Positions 4,093-17,550 of a stretch of DNA of 64,000 nt are shown in pieces. This stretch comes from an uncultured Bacilli bacterium (GTDB lineage: Bacteria; Bacillota_I; Bacilli_A; RF39; UBA660): NCBI GenBank assembly GCA_934098665.1, contig CAKOOO010000001.1, forward strand, positions 106,752 to 170,751. Reading direction: 5' to 3'. The stretch's first letter is position 1, and every line of letters starts with the position of its first letter. Both the position numbers and the translations under genes were made by a program. The notes beneath the pieces were generated by a model. It was not told the origin of the DNA and searched no databases. It was given only the letters and a program-made list of their open reading frames with translations.

Positions 4093-4605
4093 TCATCTAT
4101 TTAAAGAAGTATCATTTGTAAAATCTTTAGTACTTACATAAATTGGATCTAAAAGTGGATTATATCTATTTTCTTCATGATAACCAAAATTATTTATATA
4201 ACTACTATCTATTATAATCATTAAAGTTGTATCTATAACTTTTCCCTCATTTAATATCCAAGTATGTCTTCCATCAATTGAGTTTACTGTACCTATTAAA
4301 AAGTCCACTGTTCCACCGCATATATATGGGCTATCAAAACTATAACTAACTTGTTTTGCACAAACTGTGCAGTATCCTAAATTAGCGCCATCTTTTAAAA
4401 CCTCTAAAAAAGAGTTTACTCCCCTTGAACGTATATTTTGGCTATCTAATTTATCAAAAAGTTCATCTGAATACCCACTTACTTTACCTAAAGAAATACC
4501 ATCATCAAGTACTTTTTTAAAGGAAGGATTTTCATTATATAATTTTTTTAATAAATCATAACACTTATAATCTTTGTAATTTTCATTTATAACATAATCT
4601 AGCAT
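4093..4605 (-). CDS. hypothetical cytoplasmic protein, possibly a papain-like/C39_2-like cysteine peptidase fold
   Basis: GYCTVCA...GRHTWILNEGKVID resembles the Cys...His arrangement of C39-like peptidase domains. There is no signal peptide. It is the first gene of the island downstream of polA. Confidence 0.35.
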   Translation of the reverse strand: MLDYVINENYKDYKCYDLLKKLYNENPSFKKVLDDGISLGKVSGYSDELFDKLDSQNIRSRGVNSFLEVLKDGANLGYCTVCAKQVSYSFDSPYICGGTVDFLIGTVNSIDGRHTWILNEGKVIDTTLMIIIDSSYINNFGYHEENRYNPLLDPIYVSTKDFTNDTSLNR

Positions 4606-4647: not shown

Positions 4648-5505
4648 TTAATTTAAATTTTTAGTTATTTCAGCAAAAAATTCTTTATTCCATAAATCTA
4701 AACTTTGATTATTTTTAATAAAAGGTATAACATCTTTTTTTGCTTCTTCATAATCTATTTCATTAAATTTTTTTATAAGCATATCCTTTAAAATATTAAT
4801 ATCAAATTGCTCATCTTCCTTAATAAAATTTGATGCTATTAACTTATTTTTTAATAAAGTAATATTAATTTTTACATTATTTGCTAAAAAGAACACATAA
4901 TCGTATAAATCTCTTCCTTTAACCCTAGAGTGGTAATTCCGACATAATATTGCATGCACTTTTCCCGCGAATAAAGATGATGCATCATAAAGATTTACTT
5001 GATGAGGTGAAGGAAGAAGTTTATATTTCATTTCATAGTTTGCCCCAATTGGGGGATTAATATCTACTTCAAATTTTATTTTAATATCTTTTAATAACTT
5101 ATTATACTGATTATCTTCTTTAGGGAAAAAACGTAAGATGTGTTCAAGCGTATTTCCTTTTAAAAAAGCCGATGCAATATTAGACTCAAAATTTTTTTCT
5201 TTTTTAGATATTTTTAAATTAATGCCATATGAATTTAACTCACTTTCAACAAAACTAAAATATTTACTTAAATCAAAATTTTTGTTTGGAGATATTAAAG
5301 CAAAATCTAAATCTTCCGAAAATCTATCTAAATTATAAAATATTCTTAATGCTGTTCCACCATAAAAAGCAGCGTTATTAAAAAAGTCACTTCTTGATAG
5401 TCCACTTAATACAACTTCTTGAATAATTTCTTTTAAAGCATTTATTTCATCGTTTACATTTTTTATTTCATATTTAGAAAGCATTTGATTAATAATATTA
5501 TTCAT
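4648..5505 (-). CDS. AbiEii/AbiGii-family nucleotidyltransferase toxin (type IV toxin-antitoxin)
   Basis: The motif GGTALRIFYNLDRFSEDLDFAL is typical of DUF1814/AbiEii nucleotidyltransferases. It overlaps the upstream gene by 8 nt. Confidence 0.75.
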   Translation of the reverse strand: MNNIINQMLSKYEIKNVNDEINALKEIIQEVVLSGLSRSDFFNNAAFYGGTALRIFYNLDRFSEDLDFALISPNKNFDLSKYFSFVESELNSYGINLKISKKEKNFESNIASAFLKGNTLEHILRFFPKEDNQYNKLLKDIKIKFEVDINPPIGANYEMKYKLLPSPHQVNLYDASSLFAGKVHAILCRNYHSRVKGRDLYDYVFFLANNVKINITLLKNKLIASNFIKEDEQFDINILKDMLIKKFNEIDYEEAKKDVIPFIKNNQSLDLWNKEFFAEITKNLN

Positions 5506-6136
5506 TTATATTCCTCCTTAAAAATTTTTCTAATAGAATTACATTAGTTGAGTGATATAACCTACTTAATTTTTCTATTTTATTATAATCTAATTTGTAA
5601 AATAACTCTTCATCAATTCTTAAATCATTAAATAACATACATTTTAAATTTTCTAAAGTATTTAAAGGCTTCAAAGAATATAACTTATCACATAAAGCTT
5701 TTTCTTTAGAGGCCATTATATAAGAATATTTTCCTTCATTATTTAAAAATATTTCATATGGATATGCAGATGCTGGAACATCTTCATAAGTAAATGTACC
5801 AAAATGATTACGATATATTTTTTTCTTTTTTTTATTAAATGTAGCACATGTTATTGTAGTAACTCTTTCTGGTATTAATCCATAATATGAAAGAGCGTAT
5901 TCAAAAGATATATATGATGGTCCATAAATGCTACTTGCAAGTAAATAACCGGGAGTATTTTTATCTGTTTCATATAGTCCATTAACTATTCTATATAGTT
6001 TTTTATCTCTTATCTCTCTACTTATTTTATTATTTACATTAGAATAATCCCTTAAATTATTCTTTAGCATGCCATTAGTAATTAGCATATTTTCACCTCT
6101 AAATACCATTATACGGTATTTTGTGGAGAAAATCAA
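5498..6136 (-). CDS. AbiEi-family antitoxin/transcriptional regulator
   Basis: 212 aa, located immediately upstream of and overlapping the AbiEii-like gene, which is the canonical antitoxin-then-toxin order. AbiEi_4-like C-terminal domain. Confidence 0.55.
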   Translation of the reverse strand: MIFSTKYRIMVFRGENMLITNGMLKNNLRDYSNVNNKISREIRDKKLYRIVNGLYETDKNTPGYLLASSIYGPSYISFEYALSYYGLIPERVTTITCATFNKKKKKIYRNHFGTFTYEDVPASAYPYEIFLNNEGKYSYIMASKEKALCDKLYSLKPLNTLENLKCMLFNDLRIDEELFYKLDYNKIEKLSRLYHSTNVILLEKFLRRNINE

Positions 6137-6155
6137 GTAATTAATCTTTCATAAA

Positions 6156-6214
6156 TAAAAAAAATCTATTACGCATTTTTCAAATTTTTTTGATTTTGCG
6201 TAATAGAATAAAAT
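6156..6214. repeat. copy 1 of an about 58-bp direct repeat containing a hairpin (CTATTACGCA-N21-TGCGTAATAG)
   Basis: Sequence aaaaaaatctattacgcatttttcaaatttttttgattttgcgtaatagaataaaata. A near-identical copy lies at 8205-8262. This copy acts as the terminator hairpin downstream of the AbiL-like operon. Confidence 0.8.
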
Positions 6215-6218
6215 ACTA

Positions 6219-6830
6219 TTAATTATTTAAATTATTAAATTCATCAATTGCATCTAAAATTTTATATATACTTGTATGTGGATTTGAATTTAATAAATCA
6301 CCATTATTTTTATTAATTTTTTGTTCGAGAGATTTTGCAGTATTTCTTGCATTATTTGTTAAGTCTTTAATAACTTTATACATATCCATACTTTCTTTAT
6401 AAGTACCATTTAAGTTTTGTAATTCTTTTTTTACATCTTTACTAGTTTGAAAGTTTAATCTATTAGTTCGGTAATGCATAACGTACCATATTTCAAAAGT
6501 TGGAGCTGATGATATTATTTCTATATTATTTTCGATACATTTTTGTTTTATTTCTTTTATTTCATTTATTCGACTTTTACTTAAATCTGTATCCAATACT
6601 AGAAATATTTTATAATTTTCTTCAGAAAGAATATCTTCATTATGAATATATTTTAATAAATCATCTAACATACCTTTAGGGTCAGTACTATTTCCTGTAG
6701 AAAACTGGATTCTTAAGTTTCTATTAGCAAAATTTCTAAAGTAATAATATTCCGAAGATTTTTTCCCACCCTCTGATGAAATGACAATTAAGGGTCTTTT
6801 CTTATTATGTTTTATTTGTCTTCTAGCCAT
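6219..6830 (-). CDS. RloB-like protein (AbiLii-like, TOPRIM-type partner of an OLD-like ATPase)
   Basis: The N-terminus MARRQIKHNKKRPLIVISSEGGKKSSEYYYFRNF matches the RloB signature (basic N-terminus, LIVxxEGxxTExxYF). It overlaps the upstream ATPase gene by 19 nt. Confidence 0.6.
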   Translation of the reverse strand: MARRQIKHNKKRPLIVISSEGGKKSSEYYYFRNFANRNLRIQFSTGNSTDPKGMLDDLLKYIHNEDILSEENYKIFLVLDTDLSKSRINEIKEIKQKCIENNIEIISSAPTFEIWYVMHYRTNRLNFQTSKDVKKELQNLNGTYKESMDMYKVIKDLTNNARNTAKSLEQKINKNNGDLLNSNPHTSIYKILDAIDEFNNLNN

Positions 6831-8068
6831 AGGTCAGTATCTTTTATAAATGGAATTGCTCCGTATCTTCCATTTACATATCCTTTTTGAATATTTTCAT
6901 CTTTTCTTACAGAAAATGAATCAAGTGGATATAAATCTGATATTCCATTTTCAGGATTTTTCTCTGTAAACCAAATTTGATCTCTTCTTAACAATTCCAA
7001 ATTTAATAAATTAATAGCATGAGTTGTAAATATTAACTGACTATTAGCCTTATTTATTTCATTATTATTAAATAATTTAACTATAAATTCTACTAAAGCA
7101 GGATGTAAGCTTTTTTCTAATTCATCTACTACAATAACTTTTGACGTTTCAAACGCTTTTTTTAAAAATGGTGCAAATGCAAACAGTACTTTTGTTCCTG
7201 ATGACTCTTCAATAAAATTTAATTTATATGTATGAGTTACATTTTTATCATCTATAACTTCATGTTCCAGTTCTATATTAAAATTTTTAACTTTTAACTT
7301 TCCTTTTTGATTATCTATTTGTAATGCTAATAAATTATCCACTTCTTTTTCTTCATAATCAACATTAATGTCTTTTATTAAAATATCTGCTTCCTTTAAT
7401 AATTTTAATGCAAATTCTTTTAAATTTTCTTCTTTATTACTATAATCCACTAAATCTTTATCAGCAATACTTTCAAAAGAATCATAGGTATCAATTATAT
7501 TAGCAAACCATAAATAAGCATCTTTTGTTTTGGAATAATTCCAAGTTGTAGCTGTAGATAAAAATAATTTATTTTCAGTATTATTTGTTGATAACGACTC
7601 CAATTTATTTTTATCTATATTAAATTCATAATTATTTGTTTTAGTTCTTTTAAAAATATTAGTAGGTTTTTGGCTATAATAAGCATCTAATACTTCGTCA
7701 TAAATTTTATTTGCATCAGCACTAAAAAAATACCTATACTTAATATTATTTGCTATAAATATAAATTCAAACTCACTTGGTTTATTTTTACTAACTTCAT
7801 CAAATAAGAAAGGTTTTATAAAATTCCATTTACCACCCACGGGTATCAAATTTGAATTTCTAACCATTAATATTGCACAAGTTAGAGCTTTTAATATATT
7901 AGATTTTCCTGAAGCGTTTGCGCCATATATTGCAGCACTTTTAAGTAAAGAAATATTTTCATTAGATATTACATTATCTAAATTTTCTTCTCCACTACCC
8001 TTTTCCATAGATAATGTTACTTTATTTTTAAAAGATAAAAAATTTTTTATACTAAATTCTATAAGCAT
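6812..8068 (-). CDS. AAA-family ATPase (AbiLi-like/OLD-like ABC ATPase)
   Basis: The N-terminus MLIEFSIKNFLSFKNKVTLSM is followed by a Walker A (GANASGKSNILKAL). Walker B/D-loop is VVDELEKSLHP. H-loop is FTTHA. This is the typical partner of RloB. Confidence 0.7.
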   Translation of the reverse strand: MLIEFSIKNFLSFKNKVTLSMEKGSGEENLDNVISNENISLLKSAAIYGANASGKSNILKALTCAILMVRNSNLIPVGGKWNFIKPFLFDEVSKNKPSEFEFIFIANNIKYRYFFSADANKIYDEVLDAYYSQKPTNIFKRTKTNNYEFNIDKNKLESLSTNNTENKLFLSTATTWNYSKTKDAYLWFANIIDTYDSFESIADKDLVDYSNKEENLKEFALKLLKEADILIKDINVDYEEKEVDNLLALQIDNQKGKLKVKNFNIELEHEVIDDKNVTHTYKLNFIEESSGTKVLFAFAPFLKKAFETSKVIVVDELEKSLHPALVEFIVKLFNNNEINKANSQLIFTTHAINLLNLELLRRDQIWFTEKNPENGISDLYPLDSFSVRKDENIQKGYVNGRYGAIPFIKDTDLWLEDK

Positions 8069-8204
8069 TTTTATCTCCTCCCATAAATATTATATATTAA
8101 AATTATTAAAAAGTATACTTATTTTTATTATTTTTGTGATTTTTTTACAAATTTATTAGAAATATTTTAATATTTACAATTATTTTTTAAAATTTAAATT
8201 ATTA

Positions 8205-8262
8205 AATAAAAAAATCTATTACGCATTTTTCAATTTTTTTTGATTTTGCGTAATAGAATAAT
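8205..8262. repeat. copy 2 of the about 58-bp hairpin-containing direct repeat
   Basis: Sequence aaaaaaatctattacgcatttttcaattttttttgattttgcgtaatagaataatat. It lies immediately downstream of tsf (minus strand) and looks like the tsf Rho-independent terminator. Confidence 0.8.
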
Positions 8263-8325
8263 ATATTATTTATTATTTTAAAAAATATATATACCCATGT
8301 TTGTTAAAACATGAGTATAAATTAA

Positions 8326-9198
8326 TTATTTAATTTGATTCATTACTTCTTCAGCAAAGTTATCATTTCTTTTTTCTAATCCTTCGCCAACTTCATAACG
8401 AACCATAGAAATGATTTCTCCACCATTATTTTTAACATAATCATTTACAGATATGTCGCCATTTTTAATAAATGGTTGTTCAGCAAGACAAATTTCTTTA
8501 TAATATTTTTTAATTCTTCCTTCTACCATTTTTTCAGCAATATCAGCAGGTTTTCCTTCATTAATTGCTAAATTTCTTTGAACTTCTCTTTCTGCATCTA
8601 AAACATCAGCAGGTACCTGGCTTGTAAAAACATAAAGTGGTTTCATAGCGGCAGACTGCATTGCTACATCTTTTGCTACATCTTCACTTGCACCTTTTAC
8701 TACAGTTAATACTGATATTTTACCACCCATATGGATGTATGCACCAAAATGTTCATCATCATTTTTAGTAATTTTTTCAAATCTTCTTAAAGAAAGTTTT
8801 TCACCAATTTTAGCTGTTTTTGCAACAATTAAATCATTTAATGTTTCACCAGCATATGGTAAGTTTTTTGCTTCCTCTAAAGTAGTAGCATTACCTTCTA
8901 AAATAGTTTTTCCTAAAGCATCAACAAATTCTTTAAATTCATCATTATTACTTACAAAGTCAGTTTCACTATTTACTTCGATAATAACAGCTTTATTACC
9001 ATTTACATAAATATTTGATAAACCTTCAGCAGCAATTCTACCTTCTTTTTTAGCAGATTTTGCAATACCTTTTTCTCTTAAATAATTAATTGCTTTATCT
9101 TTATCACCATCGCACTCAGATAGAGCTTTTTTACAGTCCATCATTCCTGCACCAGTAATTTCTCTTAATTCTTTTACTAAACTAGCAGTAATTTCCAT
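8326..9198 (-). CDS. tsf: elongation factor Ts
   Basis: The N-terminus MEITASLVKELREITGAGMMDCKKAL is the canonical EF-Ts start. 290 aa. Confidence 0.95.
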   Translation of the reverse strand: MEITASLVKELREITGAGMMDCKKALSECDGDKDKAINYLREKGIAKSAKKEGRIAAEGLSNIYVNGNKAVIIEVNSETDFVSNNDEFKEFVDALGKTILEGNATTLEEAKNLPYAGETLNDLIVAKTAKIGEKLSLRRFEKITKNDDEHFGAYIHMGGKISVLTVVKGASEDVAKDVAMQSAAMKPLYVFTSQVPADVLDAEREVQRNLAINEGKPADIAEKMVEGRIKKYYKEICLAEQPFIKNGDISVNDYVKNNGGEIISMVRYEVGEGLEKRNDNFAEEVMNQIK

Positions 9199-9208
9199 TA
9201 TATCCTCC

Positions 9209-10159
9209 TTAGTTTAAAGCATTTATTAATTCTTCTTTTTTCATTGAAGAATAACCTTTAACACCTTTTTCTTTAGCAATTGCTTTTAGTTCTGCAAGTG
9301 TTTTAGAACTTAAATCATCACTTTTTTCTTCTTCGTCTTCAACGATATCATTAATTAGGTAAACATCACTTTCTTTACCTTCTTTAACTTTTTCATCGAT
9401 AACTTCATCTTTAATTAATTCTTCCATTGAAGCATTTTTCTTATTTTTGTCTTCCTCAGTTACATAATCAACTATTTCTAAATTGTTTGCTTCACAAATA
9501 GCGTTTGTAAGTACTCCAAGTAAAACTTTAATACTTCTTACAGCATCATCATTTCCAGGAATAACATAGTCAACTAAATCTGGATCTCCATTAGTGTCAA
9601 CTACACCAAATACTGGAATATGAAGTTTTCTAGCTTCTTTAATTGCATTGTATTCTTTTCTTGGATCTACAATGATTAATGCCTGTGGAAGTTTAGTCAT
9701 TTCTCTAATACCACAAAGAAGTGTATTTAATTTGTCATATTCTTTCTTAATTTTAATAACTTCTTTTTTAGGTAGTGCATCAAATGTTCCATCACTTTCC
9801 ATTTTTTCAATGTCCTCAAGTCTTTTAACTCTTCTTCTAATAGTTCTAAAGTTAGTTAAAGTTCCTCCAAGCCATCTTTCAGTTACATAGTATGAACCAC
9901 TTCTAAGTGCTTCTTCTACAGCAACTTCTCCTGATTGTTTTTTAGTTCCTACAAATAAGAACTTTCCTCCATTACTAGCAATAGTCTTAATTTCTTCATA
10001 AGCCTCCTCTAGTAATTTTTGTGTTTTTTCAAGATCAATAATATAAATATCATCTCTTGAATTAAAAATGTACTCTTTCATTTTAGGATTCCATCTTTTA
10101 GTTTGATGTCCAAAATGAACTCCTGCTTCTAATAAATAACTCATAGAAACAACGGCCAT
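9209..10159 (-). CDS. rpsB: 30S ribosomal protein S2
   Basis: The N-terminus is [19 protein letters not shown]. 316 aa with an acidic C-terminal extension. Confidence 0.95.
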
Positions 10160-10303
10160 AAAATATCCCTCCTTCGTTATTACACCTTAATGCTTCTTCC
10201 TAACATTTCACCCTCTTCGGGCACTCGAAACATTAGTCCACATTAATGTTTATTTGCTTTTAAAGCCAATACTATATTATCAAATATTGTTAATAATTAC
10301 AAG

Positions 10304-10340
10304 TCTAAAAAAATCGCTCTTCACAAAAGCGAAGAACGAT
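10304..10340 (-). terminator. Rho-independent terminator of DGR target paralog A
   Basis: Hairpin cgctcttcac-aaaa-gcgaagaacg followed by a T-run on the minus strand (plus-strand A8 at 10305-10312). A homologous hairpin follows paralog B at 13202-13240. Confidence 0.6.
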
Positions 10341-11411
10341 TTATATTCCTAGTCTATAAGGATTAGTTTTACTTCCTGTTCCTCCAGTTACATACACATT
10401 AGATTTTAGATATAAGACTGGCCTAGCCGCGCGACCATAGGAAGCCGAATTGAAGTACAAATTGCCGACGCTAGTCACGGTAAGAGGAATCGAAGAATTA
10501 TGTGCACTCATAGTCCACTCTAAGCCATTTGAAAATAACCAGTTCTTATTCATATAACTTGCTGGGCTTCCAGCACTTCCTAACACTTCAGTAAATCCTT
10601 CTATTGCGTATCCCCAATCACTTGCATACATCAGTCCTATTTTTGAAGTACTTGTTGTATGAGTTGCTATTTCTTGTGTGTAGTAATTATCTGCTGTTTT
10701 ATATGTACTATCTCCTGCTCCTACATTATAGTATACATCTTCTATCATATTTCCATAATAATCACTTGCATCTATTCCATCTGATGAATAGTTACATAAT
10801 CCTACTGCTGATGTACCTGAATGGCAATAACTATCACAAGATGATGCTTTTCCTAAATAACATGTATTAAGTAAATTTTGAATATTACTTCCCATCCATG
10901 TTGAGTTACTTCCATATTTTATTGCTCCTATAGAATCATTTCTTATTAGTTTTACTCTATTTTGAGTTGTTGCACATCCACTTGTTAAGCATACTGGTAC
11001 GTTACCTATTATTCTCCATAATTCATCATTAAACCATACATAATTATTTGGATCTGTTCCTTGATATCTTTTTCCATGTATTGTAGAAGTACCTTTACTA
11101 TCAACCACATTACTTAAATTACTAGCATTTGAATTAAATGAAATATCACACGTTACTGTTCCCTTTATTTTTGTTATTTCTAGTTTCCATGTTTTAGGGT
11201 TCCATACTCCTTTTCCATGTTCACAATTAACACTTACATTATATTTTCCTTTTGATGGAAAAGATGTTGCATCATTTCCATCTACTTTTAAAGCTATAAT
11301 ACTTCCATTATAATTAAATGTTTTAATGCTTTTACTACTTATAACTATAAGTAAAGTAAAACTTATTATTATAAATATACTACATATTATTATTTTTTTG
11401 TTATATTTCAT
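10341..11411 (-). CDS. secreted surface protein, candidate DGR target (paralog A) with a C-terminal variable region (VR-A about 10425-10497)
   Basis: N-terminal signal anchor. The C-terminal about 250 aa are homologous to those of 13241..14899 (WRIIGNVPVCLTSGCATTQNRVKLIRN etc.). It ends with the VR ...NSASYGRAARPVLYLKSNVYVTGGTGSKTNPYRLGI. VR-A is flanked 3' by the GC-rich motif gcggctaggcc. Confidence 0.6.
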   Translation of the reverse strand: MKYNKKIIICSIFIIISFTLLIVISSKSIKTFNYNGSIIALKVDGNDATSFPSKGKYNVSVNCEHGKGVWNPKTWKLEITKIKGTVTCDISFNSNASNLSNVVDSKGTSTIHGKRYQGTDPNNYVWFNDELWRIIGNVPVCLTSGCATTQNRVKLIRNDSIGAIKYGSNSTWMGSNIQNLLNTCYLGKASSCDSYCHSGTSAVGLCNYSSDGIDASDYYGNMIEDVYYNVGAGDSTYKTADNYYTQEIATHTTSTSKIGLMYASDWGYAIEGFTEVLGSAGSPASYMNKNWLFSNGLEWTMSAHNSSIPLTVTSVGNLYFNSASYGRAARPVLYLKSNVYVTGGTGSKTNPYRLGI

Positions 11412-11661
11412 TTAACATCCTTCTTTCTAATAATTTTATTAATTTATATTTTGTATAATAATATAAATAATTATTTTTTTCATATTCTTTTTTTATTTCT
11501 ATTTCTAAATTATTTAATACAATATAATTTATATTATTTAAATTTTTTATATTCTTATATATTAATTTATCTTCATAAAACGTATAATATTTATTATTTT
11601 TTTTAATTAATATTAAATAATATGGATAAATCATTTTTAATACTTTATATCTTTCTTTCAT
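11401..11661 (-). CDS. hypothetical small protein, very AT-rich and of doubtful reality
   Basis: ORF track only. Composition is Lys/Tyr/Asn-rich and no motif was found. Confidence 0.2.
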   Translation of the reverse strand: MKERYKVLKMIYPYYLILIKKNNKYYTFYEDKLIYKNIKNLNNINYIVLNNLEIEIKKEYEKNNYLYYYTKYKLIKLLERRMLNEI

Positions 11662-11822
11662 ATTTATTTTATCTTTAGCGTCTATAGAAAAAATACGTAT
11701 ATTTTTTCGTCCATCTATTATTTTTTAAAAGTTAAAACTTTTAAGGATAATTAATATTTCTTATGCTAACACTTTGTATAGCCTTAACCATATAAATTTC
11801 AAACATAAGAAGTTGCTAAAAA

Positions 11823-11879
11823 AGCCGCGTTCCCGTTAGAAGCATTGTTGCTATTCACATTAAGAGGGTTCGAAGAAGA
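11823..11879 (-). repeat. DGR template-repeat (TR)-like segment
   Basis: Minus-strand reading is tct tcg AAc cct ctt AAt gtg AAt Agc AAc AAt gct tct AAc ggg AAc gcg gct (S S N P L N V N S N N A S N G N A A). It aligns with VR-B (13325-13397) and VR-A (10425-10497). The clear anchor cases are the TR AAC Asn codons matching TAC in VR-B, in the motif A-S-N-G-N versus A-S-Y-G-Y. It shares the GC-rich gcggct end, then diverges (TR gcggcttttttagc versus VR gcggctaggccagtc), as IMH* versus IMH would. Confidence 0.55.
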
Positions 11880-11910
11880 CTCCTTTTTAAAAATAATTAC
11901 CCTAATATAT

Positions 11911-12408
11911 TTAATAATATCTATTTATAATATGTTTTAATTTATCTTTGTTTACAAAATTATAACTATGTTTATAATTTTGTATTGAATAAAAATATTT
12001 TTTTATATCTATTTTAAGTGCATATATATTATTAATTTTATGTTTTAATTTTTCAATATTATATAGTAATAAATTAATAGCATATGTTAGTCCCATACCT
12101 TTTCTTGTTGCAGTAATTTCTTTACATAAATATTTTGATAATTTTGGGATTAATATATATTTTGCTACATAATGATTTATTACTTTATTAATTATATTTT
12201 CACTCATTACAACTCTTATTTTAGGATCTTTTACTAAAAATATATTATAATTACTTTTAATATATAAATTATTTTCAAGTATATATTTAATATAAATTAA
12301 ATACTCTATTTTATATTTTTCAAATGCAAGAATTTTCTTTCTATTTTTCACTCCTTTCAATATTTCATTATTATATATATCTAATAAATCATTTATTATT
12401 ACTATCAT
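11911..12408 (-). pseudogene. DGR-type reverse transcriptase, N-terminal fragment (finger domain plus motifs 1 and 2) truncated before motif 3
   Basis: 165 aa. It matches the DGR RT N-terminus and motif 1 (FLVKDPKIRVVMSENIINKVINHYV, compare Bordetella bRT FLVYEPKPRLISALEFKDRLVQHAL) and motif 2 (LKIDIKKYFYSI, compare LKSDFSKFFPSI). A stop follows motif 2 by 20 codons and no YxDD lies downstream in any frame. The TR-like segment follows immediately. Confidence 0.6.
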
Positions 12409-12730
12409 GCTCTATCTTATTATCCATCCACTTATTACACATTTTATTTATTTCACTTAACTTATAAGTAACTTTTTTTAAATTACTTTCACTAATATAA
12501 TGTTTAATAAATATTCTTTCTAATATATAATCTATAACACTAATAAATGAATTTATTTCTACTTTATATATAGATATATTTTTATAATTATTTTCATTAT
12601 TAACTTTATTTATAAAATATAATAATTTTATAGATAATTCTTTTAATTTATCTTTATAAAAATAATCTTTTTTAGGTATATTTTCTATTAAATTTATTAT
12701 ACTTTCTAAATTTTTCCATAGAACATTTAT
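12389..12730 (-). other. open frame of 113 codons lacking an ATG/GTG/TTG start; possible Avd-like accessory gene remnant
   Basis: Manual translation of the minus strand from 12730 to 12389 reads INVLWKNLESIINLIENIPKKDYFYKDKLKELSIKLLYFINKV...ILERIFIKHY...KIEHDSNNK with no stop. It is helical, roughly the size of Avd, and lies between the RT fragments. It overlaps the RT N-fragment start by 20 nt in another frame. Confidence 0.2.
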
Positions 12731-12742
12731 TTAATTTATCTA

Positions 12743-13114
12743 TTAAAAAATCCACTTTTTTTTATCTAAATTTTTAAATGACATATCTAAATATTTAGAA
12801 TAAGTATTTATTTTACCAAAGTCTTTTATTAAAGGATCTTTATCTACATCTATAATTTGATAAGATATTTTAGCATCAGATAAAGTATTAATAACTTTAT
12901 TTATTGATGTATCAGGAAAACCTGATACTCCACCTTTCAATACTTTATAACCAAATAAAGTATTCATAATATAAACATCAATATTTTTACATTGATAAAA
13001 TTTGCCATGATTTTTAAAAATTATTAAAAATGATTTATCATCATGTTTTACATCATTAGATGTATAGCACTTTACACTTTTATCTATACATTTTGGTGTA
13101 TCTACCTCCCAGTT
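12743..13114 (-). pseudogene. reverse transcriptase C-terminal fragment (motif 7-like LFGYK plus thumb), located upstream of the N-terminal fragment
   Basis: The ORF-track 74-aa ORF (12743..12967) extends without stops up to 13114: NWEVDTPKCIDKSVKCYTSNDVKHDDKSFLIIFKNHGKFYQCKNIDVYIMNTLFGYKVLKGG.... NTLFGYKVL matches RT motif 7 (FLGYR in bRT). The 67 aa after it match the length of the bRT thumb. HDD may be a degenerate YxDD. Confidence 0.35.
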
Positions 13115-13201
13115 TTACATTATTTTTACTTTTATTAAACATTTTCAAATCTAAAACTTCCTTTCTACTTTACATTGAAAATGTAATATTTACATTTTAT
13201 C

Positions 13202-13240
13202 AAAATCGGCTTCACAAAGCGAAGCACGATTTTTTATTTT
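13202..13240 (-). terminator. terminator hairpin of DGR target paralog B
   Basis: tcggcttcac-aaa-gcgaagcacga, homologous to the hairpin after paralog A. Confidence 0.5.
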
Positions 13241-14899
13241 TTATATTCCTAGTGTATAAGGATCAGTTTTACTTCCAGTACCACCAGTTTTATATACATT
13301 AGATTTTAGATATAAGACTGGCCTAGCCGCGTACCCGTAAGAAGCATTGTGGATGTCCAAATAGCCGTCGTAGTAGACGTTAAGAGGGGATGAAGAATTA
13401 TATGCACTCATTGTCCACTCATATCCATTTGAAAATAACCAGTTCTTATTCATATAACTTTCTGGGTTTCCACTTCTTCCGAGTACTTTAGTAAAACCTT
13501 CTATTGCGTATCCCCAGTCACTTGCATACATTAAGCCTATTTTTGAAGTTGCACTTGCATAACTTGCTATTTCTTTTGTATATTGGTCATCTGCATTTAC
13601 ATATGAAGCGCTTGATGGTACTCCTACATTGTAGTATACATCTTCTATCATATTTCCATAATAATCACTTGCATCTATTCCATCTGAAGAATAGTTGCAT
13701 AATCCTACTGCTGATGTAGAATATGAATAACAATAACTATCACATGAGGATACTTTTCCTAAATAACATGTATTTAGTAAATTTTGAATATTACTTCCTA
13801 TCCATGTAAATGGACTGGATGAGCTAAAGGCAGTTTGATTAAATGCTATTGCACCTATTGAATTGTTTCTTATTAGTTTTACTCTATTTTGAGTTGTTGC
13901 ACATCCACTTGTTAGACATACTGGTACGTTTCCGATTATTCTCCATAATTCATCGTTATACCACACATAGTTATCTGGATCTGTTCCTTGATATCTTATT
14001 CCATGTGTTGTACTTGTCCCTTTTGTATCTACTATAGTAGAAAGTAGCTCACTATTTGAGGGTGTTTTTTGAGTAAATGATATATCACAGTTTACAAAAT
14101 CTGACCAATTAGATATAACTAAACCATTTAATTTATTATCCCATACTGCACTATTTGTTCCACTGCAATTTGTTATACTTTTTGTATATCCTGATAAAAG
14201 GTATGCTGGAGTTGCAACATTTACTGTTACATCTTTTTCTGGTGGAAGAGGATCTCCCATTGTACATTTTGCATTAGTAACTCTATATTTACCTTTAAAA
14301 GTTTTATTTGCTAGTGCTGACTGATCTAAATCTAAATTATAAAATCTATTTGTAAAATTCCATGTTTGTTTTTTATCTTTATTTGAGGAAGAGTTTGCTA
14401 TAACTGCACCACTTACTATAGTTGCAGTTGTAGTGGTTAAATTAAAGTTTTTTTCTTCCACATAATTATTTGTTCCTGTATTTGGACCTTTTGCCTCTAA
14501 AGTAAGTTCTTTTGTTGCTCCACTTGTAACAGGCGTAGGACTTTTTCCATAAATACTTGAATCACTATCATAAGTAAATGTAATATCATATGTACAGCTT
14601 ACTGAATATTCTTCACTACCTGATATTAAAGATACTACTAAAGAAGATGTATTTTCCGCTACATAATTATCTCTATTACTTTGACTCATACCTTTAGGGT
14701 CAATTGTTAAAGCAAAATCAGCATTTGTTACATCTAAAATAGAGTTTGCTAAATTTTTTGCAGCTATATTAACATTTGCTTTATTTGAAATATCCACTAA
14801 AAAATTACCAATATATGCAAATGCCACTGATACTACAAGTACAATTAATACTACAGATATTATAATAGTTTTAATATTTTTCTTATCTAATTTTTTCAT
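13241..14899 (-). CDS. secreted protein, candidate DGR target (paralog B): TasA/camelysin-like N-terminal region with a SipW-type signal, fused to the diversified C-terminal domain (VR-B about 13325-13397)
   Basis: The N-terminus MKKLDKKNIKTIIISVVLIVLVVSVAFAYIGNF resembles the SipW-cognate signal. Residues about 30-230 are homologous to 48674..49351 and 55080..55748. The C-terminal about 250 aa are homologous to paralog A. VR is ...SPLNVYYDGYLDIHNASYGYAARP with Tyr codons where the TR has Asn. Confidence 0.6.
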   Translation of the reverse strand: MKKLDKKNIKTIIISVVLIVLVVSVAFAYIGNFLVDISNKANVNIAAKNLANSILDVTNADFALTIDPKGMSQSNRDNYVAENTSSLVVSLISGSEEYSVSCTYDITFTYDSDSSIYGKSPTPVTSGATKELTLEAKGPNTGTNNYVEEKNFNLTTTTATIVSGAVIANSSSNKDKKQTWNFTNRFYNLDLDQSALANKTFKGKYRVTNAKCTMGDPLPPEKDVTVNVATPAYLLSGYTKSITNCSGTNSAVWDNKLNGLVISNWSDFVNCDISFTQKTPSNSELLSTIVDTKGTSTTHGIRYQGTDPDNYVWYNDELWRIIGNVPVCLTSGCATTQNRVKLIRNNSIGAIAFNQTAFSSSSPFTWIGSNIQNLLNTCYLGKVSSCDSYCYSYSTSAVGLCNYSSDGIDASDYYGNMIEDVYYNVGVPSSASYVNADDQYTKEIASYASATSKIGLMYASDWGYAIEGFTKVLGRSGNPESYMNKNWLFSNGYEWTMSAYNSSSPLNVYYDGYLDIHNASYGYAARPVLYLKSNVYKTGGTGSKTDPYTLGI

Positions 14900-15009
14900 A
14901 TTTATCTTTCCTATCTTACATTTATAATAATACCATAGTCTTATTATTTTTCCAAGTACATAAATAAAAAAAGTTATAACTAAAATTAATTAATTATAAC
15001 TTATATTTT

Positions 15010-17550
15010 CTATACTCCTAAAGGAATATTTTTCTTTTTTAAAATATATTTTCTTATTAAATCTACTATAAAAATAGATAATGATAAAATAAATGTAAAT
15101 AATAACTCTTTAAAAGAAAGACCATAAGTTCTAAATAAATCTTTACCATTATAAATAATATATATTTGAACTATAAATATAAAAATATTTATTATTAAAA
15201 ACACTTTATTTTTTAAAATATGAGCAAAAATATTAAGTCTATGAGTACGTGATGTAAATGAGTTACATATACCTAAAAATATAAATAATGCAAAATATGC
15301 TGTAAATAATGTTTTTTCACTAGGAAAAAGATTTTTTATAAAAGGAAGTTTTAAAAACAAAAGACATAATATTCCTGAATAAATACCATTTATAAGAATT
15401 TGATTAAACATATATTTATTCATAACTTTTTCATTTTTAGTTTTTGGTTTTTCCTCTAAAAACTCTTTTAAAGGTGGTTCATAAGAAAATGCAAGACCTG
15501 CAAAAGTATCCATAATCATATTAAGCCAAAGCATTTGAATTATTGTAATTGGTGTTGATATACCAAGAAGTACTCCTACAATAGATAATACAAGTGCACA
15601 TACATTTACAGTAAGCTGATATATAATAAATTTTCTAATACTTTTAAAAATAGTTCTTCCATAAAGCACTGCATTACAAATTGATTTAATATTATCATCT
15701 AAAATAACTATATCACTTGCATCTTTACTTACTTCAGAACCTGATCCAAGAGCAAAACCTACATCACTTTTTTTAAGGGCAAGTGCATCATTTACGCCAT
15801 CACCTGTCATACCAACAACATAATTATAACTTTGTAAAATTGAAACAAGTCTACTTTTATCTTGGGGAAGCGCTCTTGCTATAACTTTTAAATATTTTAT
15901 TTGGCTCATAATTTGTTCATCTGATAAACTAGAAAGTTCATTATGAGTAAGTGCTATAGACCCATTTTTATAAAGACCTAACTCTTTAGCAATATTTATA
16001 GCGGTTTCTTTACTATCACCAGTAATCATAATAACTTTTATACCTGCATTTTCTATTTGTTCTAGACTTTCTTTAGCATCTTTTCTAAGTACATCAGATA
16101 TAATAATTAAGTTAATAAAAGTAAGCTCTTCTTTATTTTTTCCATAAGCATTTACTAAAACTCTATATCCTTTTGAGGTATAACTTTTTATAGTATTTTC
16201 TAATATCATTTTCGATGAAAAAAATTCTTCTTTTCCATTTAAAGTTAAATATTTAGTGCATTTTTTTAAAAGTACTTCACTTGCTCCTTTAAAATAGTAA
16301 AGATCTGATTTTACCATACTATATTTATTTTCTGATGTAAAAAGAACTTTTTCAGTTATAATATCAGTATTATTAAGTGGTCCAATAAACCTTTTAATAG
16401 CTTTATCCGTAATATTACCACCAATAATATCTTTTCCTGAAAATACACTTTCATTATTTAAAAATAAAGATTTAGAAAGTATATTATAATAATCTTTATA
16501 ATGGGTTAATTCCTCTTTTGATTTAAATATTTTTCCATTATTAGAAATAATATATTTTACATTTAACTTACCCATTGTTAATGTACCAGTTTTATCACAT
16601 AGTAAAACATTTAATGAACCACTTGTTTCTATACCTACAAGTTTACGAACAAGTACATTATCCTTTAGCATTTTTTTCATATTCGAAGAAAGTACTAAAG
16701 TAATCATCATAGGAAGGCCTTCGGGTACTGCTACAATGATAATGGTTACAGTTAATGTTAAAACGTAAAAAATATAATTAAGCATCAAAGGAATATTTTT
16801 TAAAGTAAGCACTATTAAATGGATATTAAAATTATTTTTAACAACAATTTGCATAAATAAATATGATAAACTTGCAAGAGATGCACCAATATAACCAAGT
16901 TTACTTATACTTTTTGCAAGAACACGTAATCTTCCCTTCAAAGGGCTTTCACTCTTTTTTTCTTGAACGCCTTTAGAAATATCTCCCATAAAAGTATTAT
17001 CACCAACACTAGTTACTTTTATTTTAGCTTCGCCCTTATATACTGTCGAAGAGCTATAAACAGTTTCATTATAACCTTTGGTAACTTCACGGCTTTCACC
17101 AGTAATAAAGGACTCATCTAAAGTAAGCGTGCCAGAAATAATTTTACCATCTGCCGCAATTTTATCTCCCCCTGATAAACACAAAATATCACCAACAACA
17201 ACATCTTTACTTTGAATACTTATAAGTTTATTATTACGAATTACTTTAGCACTTGTTTTTTGACTTTCTTCGAAAAGTCTTTCAAATGCTTTATTAGAAC
17301 CATATTCACTTATCGAAGATATAAAAGATGCTAAAAAAATTGCAATAACAATTCCAAGTGTTTCATACCAGTCAAAATTTTTAAATAAAAATACAACTTT
17401 TATGGCAAGAGCTATTAAAAGTATTTTAATTATAGGATCAGATAGTGACTCTAATAATATTTTTAAAAATGTATCACCTTTTTTTCTAGTTATTTCATTA
17501 CTACCATATTTTTTACGACTACTTAATACTTCATTATCATTTAGTCCCAA
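15010..17550 (-). CDS. P-type cation-transporting ATPase (Ca2+-ATPase type, P2)
   Basis: The phosphorylation motif is CDKTGTLT, the hinge motif is GMTGDGVNDALALKKSDVGFALG, and there are 10 predicted TM segments. Confidence 0.9.
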   Translation of the reverse strand: MGLNDNEVLSSRKKYGSNEITRKKGDTFLKILLESLSDPIIKILLIALAIKVVFLFKNFDWYETLGIVIAIFLASFISSISEYGSNKAFERLFEESQKTSAKVIRNNKLISIQSKDVVVGDILCLSGGDKIAADGKIISGTLTLDESFITGESREVTKGYNETVYSSSTVYKGEAKIKVTSVGDNTFMGDISKGVQEKKSESPLKGRLRVLAKSISKLGYIGASLASLSYLFMQIVVKNNFNIHLIVLTLKNIPLMLNYIFYVLTLTVTIIIVAVPEGLPMMITLVLSSNMKKMLKDNVLVRKLVGIETSGSLNVLLCDKTGTLTMGKLNVKYIISNNGKIFKSKEELTHYKDYYNILSKSLFLNNESVFSGKDIIGGNITDKAIKRFIGPLNNTDIITEKVLFTSENKYSMVKSDLYYFKGASEVLLKKCTKYLTLNGKEEFFSSKMILENTIKSYTSKGYRVLVNAYGKNKEELTFINLIIISDVLRKDAKESLEQIENAGIKVIMITGDSKETAINIAKELGLYKNGSIALTHNELSSLSDEQIMSQIKYLKVIARALPQDKSRLVSILQSYNYVVGMTGDGVNDALALKKSDVGFALGSGSEVSKDASDIVILDDNIKSICNAVLYGRTIFKSIRKFIIYQLTVNVCALVLSIVGVLLGISTPITIIQMLWLNMIMDTFAGLAFSYEPPLKEFLEEKPKTKNEKVMNKYMFNQILINGIYSGILCLLFLKLPFIKNLFPSEKTLFTAYFALFIFLGICNSFTSRTHRLNIFAHILKNKVFLIINIFIFIVQIYIIYNGKDLFRTYGLSFKELLFTFILSLSIFIVDLIRKYILKKKNIPLGV

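Follow-up and report, generated by a model that had tools for sequence, protein, structure and literature searches.

The present analysis concerns a window of 64,000 nucleotides (nt) from an uncultured Bacilli bacterium (contig CAKOOO010000001.1 of assembly GCA_934098665.1, positions 106,752 to 170,751 of the forward strand), in which two overlapping minus-strand genes, here called abiLi and abiLii, encode an ATPase and a small RloB-family protein. The locus is chromosomal in a low-GC human-gut bacterium; among named organisms, 'Candidatus Pelethosoma' and 'Mycoplasma sp. CAG:472' are its relatives. From profile matches, motifs and gene order, this locus is very probably an AbiL-family defence module, and a functional AbiL-type two-gene defence operon is likely the best explanation of the data as a whole. 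It is an ordinary but intact copy of a catalogued system and nothing categorically new; what is new here is its setting, namely a cassette bracketed by hairpin repeats and a presence/absence polymorphism among related strains, which fits known defence hotspots.

AbiL was named early among abortive-infection systems and is the least studied of the pairs that join an ABC ATPase to a TOPRIM-type protein (OLD, Gabija, PARIS). In this context, the copy described here offers a compact, intact and well-delimited 2-kb cassette with clear catalytic residues for mutation. Moreover, related strains carrying every combination of presence and absence of AbiL and of a neighbouring AbiE module form a natural set with which function could be probed in an uncultured gut lineage.

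The ATPase and the RloB protein

An earlier note on this DNA, written without database searches, had read the two open reading frames (ORFs) as an AAA ATPase followed by an RloB-signature protein in the AbiLi/AbiLii arrangement. Both ORFs lie exactly where it had placed them, on the minus strand and overlapping, and both PADLOC models of the system were matched by genes that are adjacent and co-directional, so that the reading of the note is supported and the locus belongs to AbiL as PADLOC and DefenseFinder define it. AbiLi matched Pfam AAA_21 at 2.4e-35 and, as its top PADLOC model, AbiLi at 7.5e-95 (315.7 bits, with 119.8 bits for the runner-up). The runner-up model, filed under AriA, spans 304 profile positions and scores nearly the same as Pfam AAA_21, so that it gives the impression of a generic AAA_21-type profile placed under that name. 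Secondary PADLOC matches to HEC-01A and mad3 were far below the AbiLi score, and matches to Old and GajA were partial, at about 1e-6. The earlier note had also named the outcomes that would speak against its proposal, a RecF or ABC-transporter ATPase and an unrelated family for the 203-amino-acid (aa) protein, and neither was found: the RecF signal reached 16 bits against a cut-off of 172 and covered the P-loop (Walker A) only, no ABC-transporter family was among the Pfam matches of AbiLi, and the smaller protein matched RloB.

The motifs of AbiLi comprise a Walker A at G49-S56 (GANASGKS), a signature at E288-S289-x-G291-T292, a Walker B at D315-E316 and an H-loop at H350, with about 230 aa inserted between Walker A and the signature. 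When AbiLi was aligned with homologues of 32-39% identity encoded on plasmids of Clostridium, Selenomonas, Shinella, Enterococcus and Phocaeicola, residues G49, N51, S53, G54 and K55, E288, S289, G291 and T292, and D315, E316, H322, Q344 and H350 were invariant. Furthermore, the AbiLi profile aligned with the phage P2 Old ATPase (hhalign E 3e-4) with signature, Walker B and H-loop in register. Judged by these motifs, AbiLi is an ABC-type ATPase of the AAA_15/21 group, which is used by OLD, PARIS, Gabija and Septu, and its catalytic motifs are all intact. A homology search aimed at distant ATPases, run with a mixed alignment, returned the same close relatives only, and sequence and profile searches of PDB sequences with AbiLi and RloB returned no relative with a solved structure.

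AbiLii matched Pfam RloB (PF13707) at 3e-23, with 83.5 bits against a cut-off of 31.5, and PADLOC AbiLii at 1.3e-13. The RloB family is large, with 1,089 clusters at the 50%-identity level (E<=1e-3), and consists mostly of single-domain proteins of about 200-215 aa. Among 119 diverse full-length members, all of which (119/119) matched PADLOC AbiLii, residues G21, E27, D80, E113, W115 and Y144 were invariant, and E20, Y30, T49, D50, D82, S108, P110, F112 and H119 were near-invariant, as was position 26, which is mostly Thr in the family and Ser in the window protein. Cross-matches of these 119 relatives to other Pfam families were to DUF4276 (6), DUF3854 (4) and Toprim (2), and their secondary PADLOC matches, to HEC-01B and mad4, were far below the AbiLii scores.

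An AlphaFold2 model of AbiLii built on the same 119-sequence alignment was obtained with a predicted local distance difference test (pLDDT) score of 96.2 and a predicted template modelling score (pTM) of 0.90. Its core runs b1(14-18)-a1-b2(39-43)-a2-b3(73-80)-a3-b4(103-109), and the conserved residues sit at the C-terminal ends of b1, b3 and b4, with E20 directly after b1 and E27 farther on, D80-x-D82 at the end of b3 and E113/W115 after b4; the N-terminal tail is basic. A layout with Glu after b1 and DxD at the end of b3 is said to be that of the TOPRIM domain as defined by Aravind, Leipe and Koonin in 1998. According to the model, AbiLii is a small single-domain RloB protein of TOPRIM topology bearing the acidic residues of a metal-dependent nuclease, and it is a predicted nuclease. 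A Foldseek search of a viral library with this model gave one match, an RloB-like protein of a Myoviridae (E 2e-6, TM 0.71).

The two ORFs did not arise by chance: their profile E-values lie well outside what chance would give, and both proteins were residue-for-residue identical on many independent gut-metagenome contigs. Proteins 78-86% identical to AbiLi and AbiLii were abundant in gut metagenomes, some of them labelled Candidatus Pelethosoma merdigallinarum or Bacilli bacterium; the genus Candidatus Pelethosoma is placed by NCBI in Mycoplasmatota incertae sedis. Against a sister-lineage copy of 84% nucleotide identity, the ratio of nonsynonymous to synonymous substitution rates (dN/dS) was 0.118 for abiLi and 0.157 for abiLii, and both genes are under purifying selection. 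The pairing itself extends to plasmids: a gene annotated as 'RloB family protein' directly followed the ATPase gene in four of the five plasmid homologues inspected, either overlapping it or 2-14 nt apart. These ATPase-RloB pairs, from Clostridium, Shinella, Enterococcus and Phocaeicola, span four phyla and are stand-alone pairs.

As a separate observation, the Phocaeicola vulgatus plasmid pPvulCL10_1 (3001-7296) carries a distant AbiLi/RloB pair with, immediately after it, genes for a TIR-domain, a SIR2-family and a second TIR-domain protein, and this region looks like a larger plasmid-borne defence cluster.

AbiL (AbiLi/AbiLii) was reportedly described in 1999 by Deng et al. on the Lactococcus lactis plasmid pND861. 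That system is likewise a two-gene operon in which an AAA_21/Rad50-like ABC ATPase precedes an RloB/TOPRIM-like protein, but pND861 is a dairy plasmid, whereas the copy studied here is chromosomal, in an uncultured gut host and of about 25% GC; no Lactococcus record was among the listed matches of a tblastn search of PLSDB with AbiLi and AbiLii. AbiL, PARIS, OLD, Gabija and MADS have been grouped as systems of an ABC ATPase plus TOPRIM (PMC11464382, PMC12409363). Of these, PARIS (AriA/AriB) also splits an ABC ATPase (AAA_15/21) and a TOPRIM-type effector into separate proteins of a tight operon (PMC11464382), but here the effector is RloB and not DUF4435, so that the locus is not PARIS; AbiLii has 203 aa as against 35 kDa for AriB, and the window RloB protein had no DUF4435 or AriB match in Pfam or PADLOC. 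Phage P2 Old and OLD-family classes 1-3, including GajA, use the same ATPase group and share the EG..KTE and DxD TOPRIM motifs; however, OLD and GajA fuse ATPase and TOPRIM in one polypeptide, and the two ORFs found here resemble class 4 (PARIS) only. The RloA/RloB genes of Campylobacter jejuni type I restriction-modification (R-M) loci pair the same Pfam family, RloB, with an ATPase, although the present pair is not within an hsd locus. HEC-01 (A/B) and mad3/mad4 of MADS, which are PADLOC candidate systems, are sister families and not the best assignment. Finally, the gene order, with the ATPase first, and the apparent coupling of the two genes agree with type II toxin-antitoxin pairs of an AAA antitoxin and a TOPRIM toxin.

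Several points weigh against the preferred explanation, in which this locus is a functional AbiL defence operon with a nuclease restrained by its ATPase. The defence role at this locus is a computational prediction, the family assignment being made via PADLOC and Pfam models. The AlphaFold2 model of AbiLi, whose alignment held only 76-86%-identical sequences, reached a pLDDT of 37.8 and was not used. A Foldseek search of the PDB with the AbiLii model returned nothing at E<=1e-3, the best match being a Csm6 chain (E 4e-3); TOPRIM domains of topoisomerase II/IV came at E ~1e-2 with a TM of ~0.28, and OLD, GajA and AriB chains were absent from the top 50. Likewise, AriB, Old, GajA and DUF4435 were not among the best 25 families matched by the 119 RloB relatives. 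The RloB motif EG-x-NKTE aligned with VEG-KTE of the P2 Old TOPRIM domain, but over 17 columns and with a non-significant hhalign E of 0.11. The term 'OLD-like' in the earlier note holds if taken broadly: the ATPase profile aligns with P2 Old, and RloB has a TOPRIM layout with the EG..KTE and DxD motifs, but the Foldseek and hhalign comparisons gave no statistical support for a link of RloB to the OLD TOPRIM domain. Models of AbiLii and AriB superimpose poorly (PMC13064643), and this, together with the lack of AriB, Old or GajA matches, makes the analogy with PARIS architectural rather than one of close homology. The mechanism of AbiL is also unsolved (PMC13064643).

Proposed mechanism and rival explanations

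AbiL gives abortive infection in Lactococcus and acts after phage transcription (PMC13064643). By analogy with PARIS, P2 Old and AAA/TOPRIM toxin-antitoxin pairs, an AbiLi oligomer would bind the AbiLii nuclease and hold it inactive, serving as both sensor and antitoxin, and a phage-derived cue would shift the conformation of AbiLi and free or activate AbiLii. The latter would then cleave some essential nucleic acid, for which tRNA or another RNA is the likeliest candidate and DNA a less likely one, and this cleavage would halt translation and abort the infection. In PARIS, AriB stays sequestered by a hexamer of AriA until a phage protein sets it free, and it then cleaves tRNA; both AriB and P2 OLD are tRNases (PMC12409363; 2026 preprint bioRxiv 10.64898/2026.07.10.737580). 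Furthermore, TOPRIM_OLD toxins are neutralised by AAA antitoxins, and in one labelling experiment the pattern was described as that of toxins directed at translation (PMC10440598). On these analogies, we lean towards a nuclease restrained by its ATPase as the working scheme, and tRNA or RNA specifically as the target of AbiLii may be put forward as a tentative suggestion.

The module could instead be mainly a toxin-antitoxin addiction pair, with AbiLii as toxin and AbiLi as antitoxin, stabilising itself or the AbiL-AbiE islet with no dedicated anti-phage role. This reading draws on neutralisation assays in which AAA/TOPRIM_OLD pairs acted as toxin-antitoxin (PMC10440598), and on the position of abiL beside AbiE, another system of toxin-antitoxin type, and as mobile-element cargo in a sister lineage. 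We consider it unlikely: effective addiction should resist loss, whereas abiL is easily lost and some strains with an identical tsf product lack it, and phage resistance is conferred both by the founding AbiL and by PARIS, a related system (PMC13064643, PMC11464382). Addiction and defence roles are, moreover, not mutually exclusive. An inactive relic, that is, a cassette of recent acquisition that has lost its expression or function, would accord with the split abiLi or abiE genes of some related contigs (L020, L013) and with the deletion that the AbiL and AbiE modules are undergoing in the population; against it stand full-length ORFs with all catalytic residues intact, dN/dS values of 0.12-0.16, and promoter-like hexamers, a Shine-Dalgarno sequence and a terminator, which make a relic very improbable.

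The proximity of polA and mutM, the weak RecF signal at Walker A and the occurrence of TOPRIM domains in RecR might evoke a housekeeping DNA-repair pair linked to polA/mutM, composed of a RecF/SMC-like ATPase and a RecR-like TOPRIM protein. We give this reading almost no credence, since the RecF score lies far below its cut-off and is confined to the P-loop, and the pair is missing from some related strains whose tsf product is identical, as well as from related species in which the 170-aa gene and polA are retained, and is mobile-element cargo in the sister lineage. Scarcely better placed, and in our view extremely unlikely, is an RloA/RloB-type accessory that modulates or backs up restriction at a type I R-M locus. 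The RloB family was indeed named from genes within Campylobacter type I R-M loci, as cited in PMC10440598 and PMC13064643; however, no hsd or other R-M gene occurs in the Pfam annotations across the 64-kb window, the neighbours being tsf, abiE, the 170-aa gene and polA, and the plasmid homologues stand alone as well. An AbiL-type defence operon remains the preferred explanation.

The cassette, its hairpin repeats and the variable slot

The abiL module has adjacent, co-directional genes with one promoter region and one terminator. The strong Shine-Dalgarno sequence ahead of abiLi has no counterpart upstream of the abiLii start codon, and this, together with the overlap of the two ORFs, makes it probable that abiLii is translated by coupling to abiLi. 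In the sister lineage (L026-L030, Candidatus Pelethosoma-like contigs, about 6900-17000), the AbiL cassette ends an integrative mobilizable element with genes for a tyrosine integrase, a Mob_Pre relaxase and an AAA_25 protein, and has a Transposase_mut fragment on one side and an unknown gene of 364 aa on the other. By blastn, the window and the L026 cassette share 84% nucleotide identity over 1,952 aligned bases, from window position 8152, 84 nt upstream of the abiLi start and the left end of the common segment, to 6218, in the abiLii stop codon; these limits indicate that the exchanged unit is the promoter plus the two genes. The abiL module is a self-contained cassette of promoter, two genes and terminator that has moved horizontally and is gained and lost among strains.

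In the window, the cassette is flanked by two direct repeats (8201-8290 and 6151-6240), 87% identical over 90 nt, with a near-identical core of ~62 nt and a start-to-start spacing of 2,050 nt. At the centre of each repeat is a 41-nt hairpin, CTATTACGCA-N21-TGCGTAATAG, of which exactly two copies were found in the window where chance would predict none. The downstream copy (B) likely serves as the intrinsic terminator of the abiL operon, judging from its fold and U-run. A metagenome scan located the same hairpin in two contigs otherwise dissimilar to the window. One of them (L059) has a single copy (5522-5562) between yabQ and an asparagine synthase gene; in the other (L060), direct copies at 8478-8518 and 9775-9815, with no T-run after them, bracket a gene for a 406-aa AAA_14/DUF4143 ATPase that is inserted between an HD-domain gene and spoIVA. 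The hairpin was not found in viral contigs or in the fetched loci of other species. Its occurrence at these further places shows it to be a dispersed element, seemingly restricted to this lineage, with accessory cassettes enclosed between its copies at two or more loci.

The occupancy of the slot was compared among contigs that encode an identical tsf product and presumably belong to one species. Most contigs carry AbiL and AbiE with two hairpins. In an AbiL-only contig (L004), AbiE is deleted with the same boundaries as in the empty allele (window 6082-4668), from just past abiEi codon 2 to about 20 nt before the abiEii stop. An AbiE-only state, seen in L056 and one similar place, keeps both hairpins: it retains window 8348-8119, which includes the initial ~100 nt upstream of abiL, followed by ~47 nt of unrelated filler and then hairpin B. 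Neither module is present in L057 and L058, whose allele maps to window 8346-8212, then 6162-6083, then 4667-4594, with a single hairpin in place of the 2,050-nt AbiL unit and the AbiE scar behind it. Finally, in L003 AbiL has a different neighbour, the 3' end of abiLii and everything downstream being replaced by a 649-aa AAA_21 protein. Among eight contigs sampled by way of tsf, a choice without bias as to the content of the islet, both modules were present in four, AbiE only in two and neither in two. The compact defence islet proposed in the earlier note is borne out and can be described more sharply, since both of its modules are polymorphic for presence and absence among related strains.

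The simplest account of these states is that the hairpin repeats recombine with each other and so cause deletion, that AbiE was deleted separately, and that strains reassort the modules by recombining with one another. Variable defence hotspots are likewise slots between core genes with differing combinations of defence modules among related strains, but here the AbiL unit is flanked by direct hairpin copies and the same hairpin flanks an unrelated cassette elsewhere. This architecture gives a modest hint of how a hotspot that lacks a mobile element acquires and loses its defence genes. The hairpin-cassette-hairpin arrangement, with one hairpin in the empty allele, is also the pattern expected if a small circular cassette integrated at, and was excised from, a resident site. 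It is conceivable, although doubtful, that the hairpin is the recombination site of an attC-like or REP-like cassette-exchange system whose enzyme is encoded elsewhere; if so, hairpin-based exchange would shuffle defence and other accessory genes without a linked integrase.

Origins of the hairpins from an integron or an IS200/IS605-type element were considered and rejected, since no integrase or transposase is encoded among the window genes according to their Pfam annotations. For an integron, no attC core motif (GTTRRRY-type) was seen on reading the repeat, for which no formal search was made, and for an IS200-type element seamless excision would leave no hairpin behind. Homologous recombination between the repeats is simpler than either.

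Genomic context and neighbouring features

The islet, with DNA of ~23-25% G+C, has rpsB-tsf on one flank, and its other flank consists of a conserved 170-aa gene, polA and mutM (Table 1). The idea that it is part of a prophage or integrative element in this genome was rejected because these flanks are housekeeping genes. Rfam and tRNA scans of the islet revealed no known RNA antitoxin and no tRNA attachment site.

Table 1. Positions of the islet genes, signals and hairpins in the 64,000-nt window
Feature	Position	Strand	Description
tsf terminator	8290-8319		promoter/terminator scan
Hairpin copy A	8201..8262 (core 8216-8256)	minus	upstream of the cassette, just after the tsf terminator; T-run after; fold -17.3 kcal/mol, z -5.8
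Cassette 5' region	8069..8152	minus	promoter-like hexamers at 8140-8112 (promoter scan) and GGGAGGAG
abiLi Shine-Dalgarno	8082-8075	minus	strong, GGGAGGAG; read from sequence
abiLi-like gene	6812..8068	minus	418 aa, MLIEFSIKNF...GANASGKSN; ORF read from sequence
abiLi/abiLii overlap	6812..6830	minus	19 nt; abiLii ATG within the abiLi end
abiLii-like gene	6219..6830	minus	203 aa, starts MARRQIKHNKKRPLIVISSEGGKKSSEYYYF; ORF read from sequence
Hairpin copy B	6151..6216 (core 6166-6206)	minus	downstream, 3 nt past the abiLii stop; fold -16.4 kcal/mol, z -4.7, then U8
abiEi promoter	6136-6108	minus	TTGATT-17-TATAAT; promoter scan
abiEi-like antitoxin/regulator gene	5498..6088	minus	196 aa from ATG 6088; PADLOC AbiEi 4.9e-64
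abiEii-like nucleotidyltransferase toxin gene	4648..5505	minus	285 aa; Pfam AbiEii 2.5e-28, PADLOC AbiEii 2e-103

Directly downstream of abiL, on the same strand, lies the AbiE pair that the earlier note had recognised, now backed by profile matches to both genes. These overlap by 8 nt, and from its sequence the pair corresponds to the definition of AbiE, a bicistronic unit of an AbiEi regulator/antitoxin and an AbiEii nucleotidyltransferase. The mechanical ORF of abiEi starts at TTG 6136, and related metagenome contigs have 196-aa gene calls.

The 170-aa protein (window 4093-4605, minus strand), encoded directly upstream of polA, had no Pfam, PADLOC or NCBIfam match. Its gene keeps its place by polA in related species at 52-70% identity, and this constant position marks it as the fixed right-hand edge of the variable slot, outside the islet; three species farther removed retain the 170-aa gene and polA but have other genes upstream.

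Elsewhere in the window (10341-14899, minus strand), two paralogous genes for proteins of 356 aa and 552 aa had no Pfam match and are 83-97% identical in nucleotide sequence across the ~800 nt at their 3' ends. They enclose ORFs of 86, 165 and 74 aa, which have no gene calls in some related contigs, and the G+C fraction of this stretch falls to 0.16. The 165-aa ORF had a weak, sub-threshold match to the reverse-transcriptase family RVT_1 (E 0.0012), and this region may represent the decayed remains of a retroelement, whether diversity-generating or of another kind.

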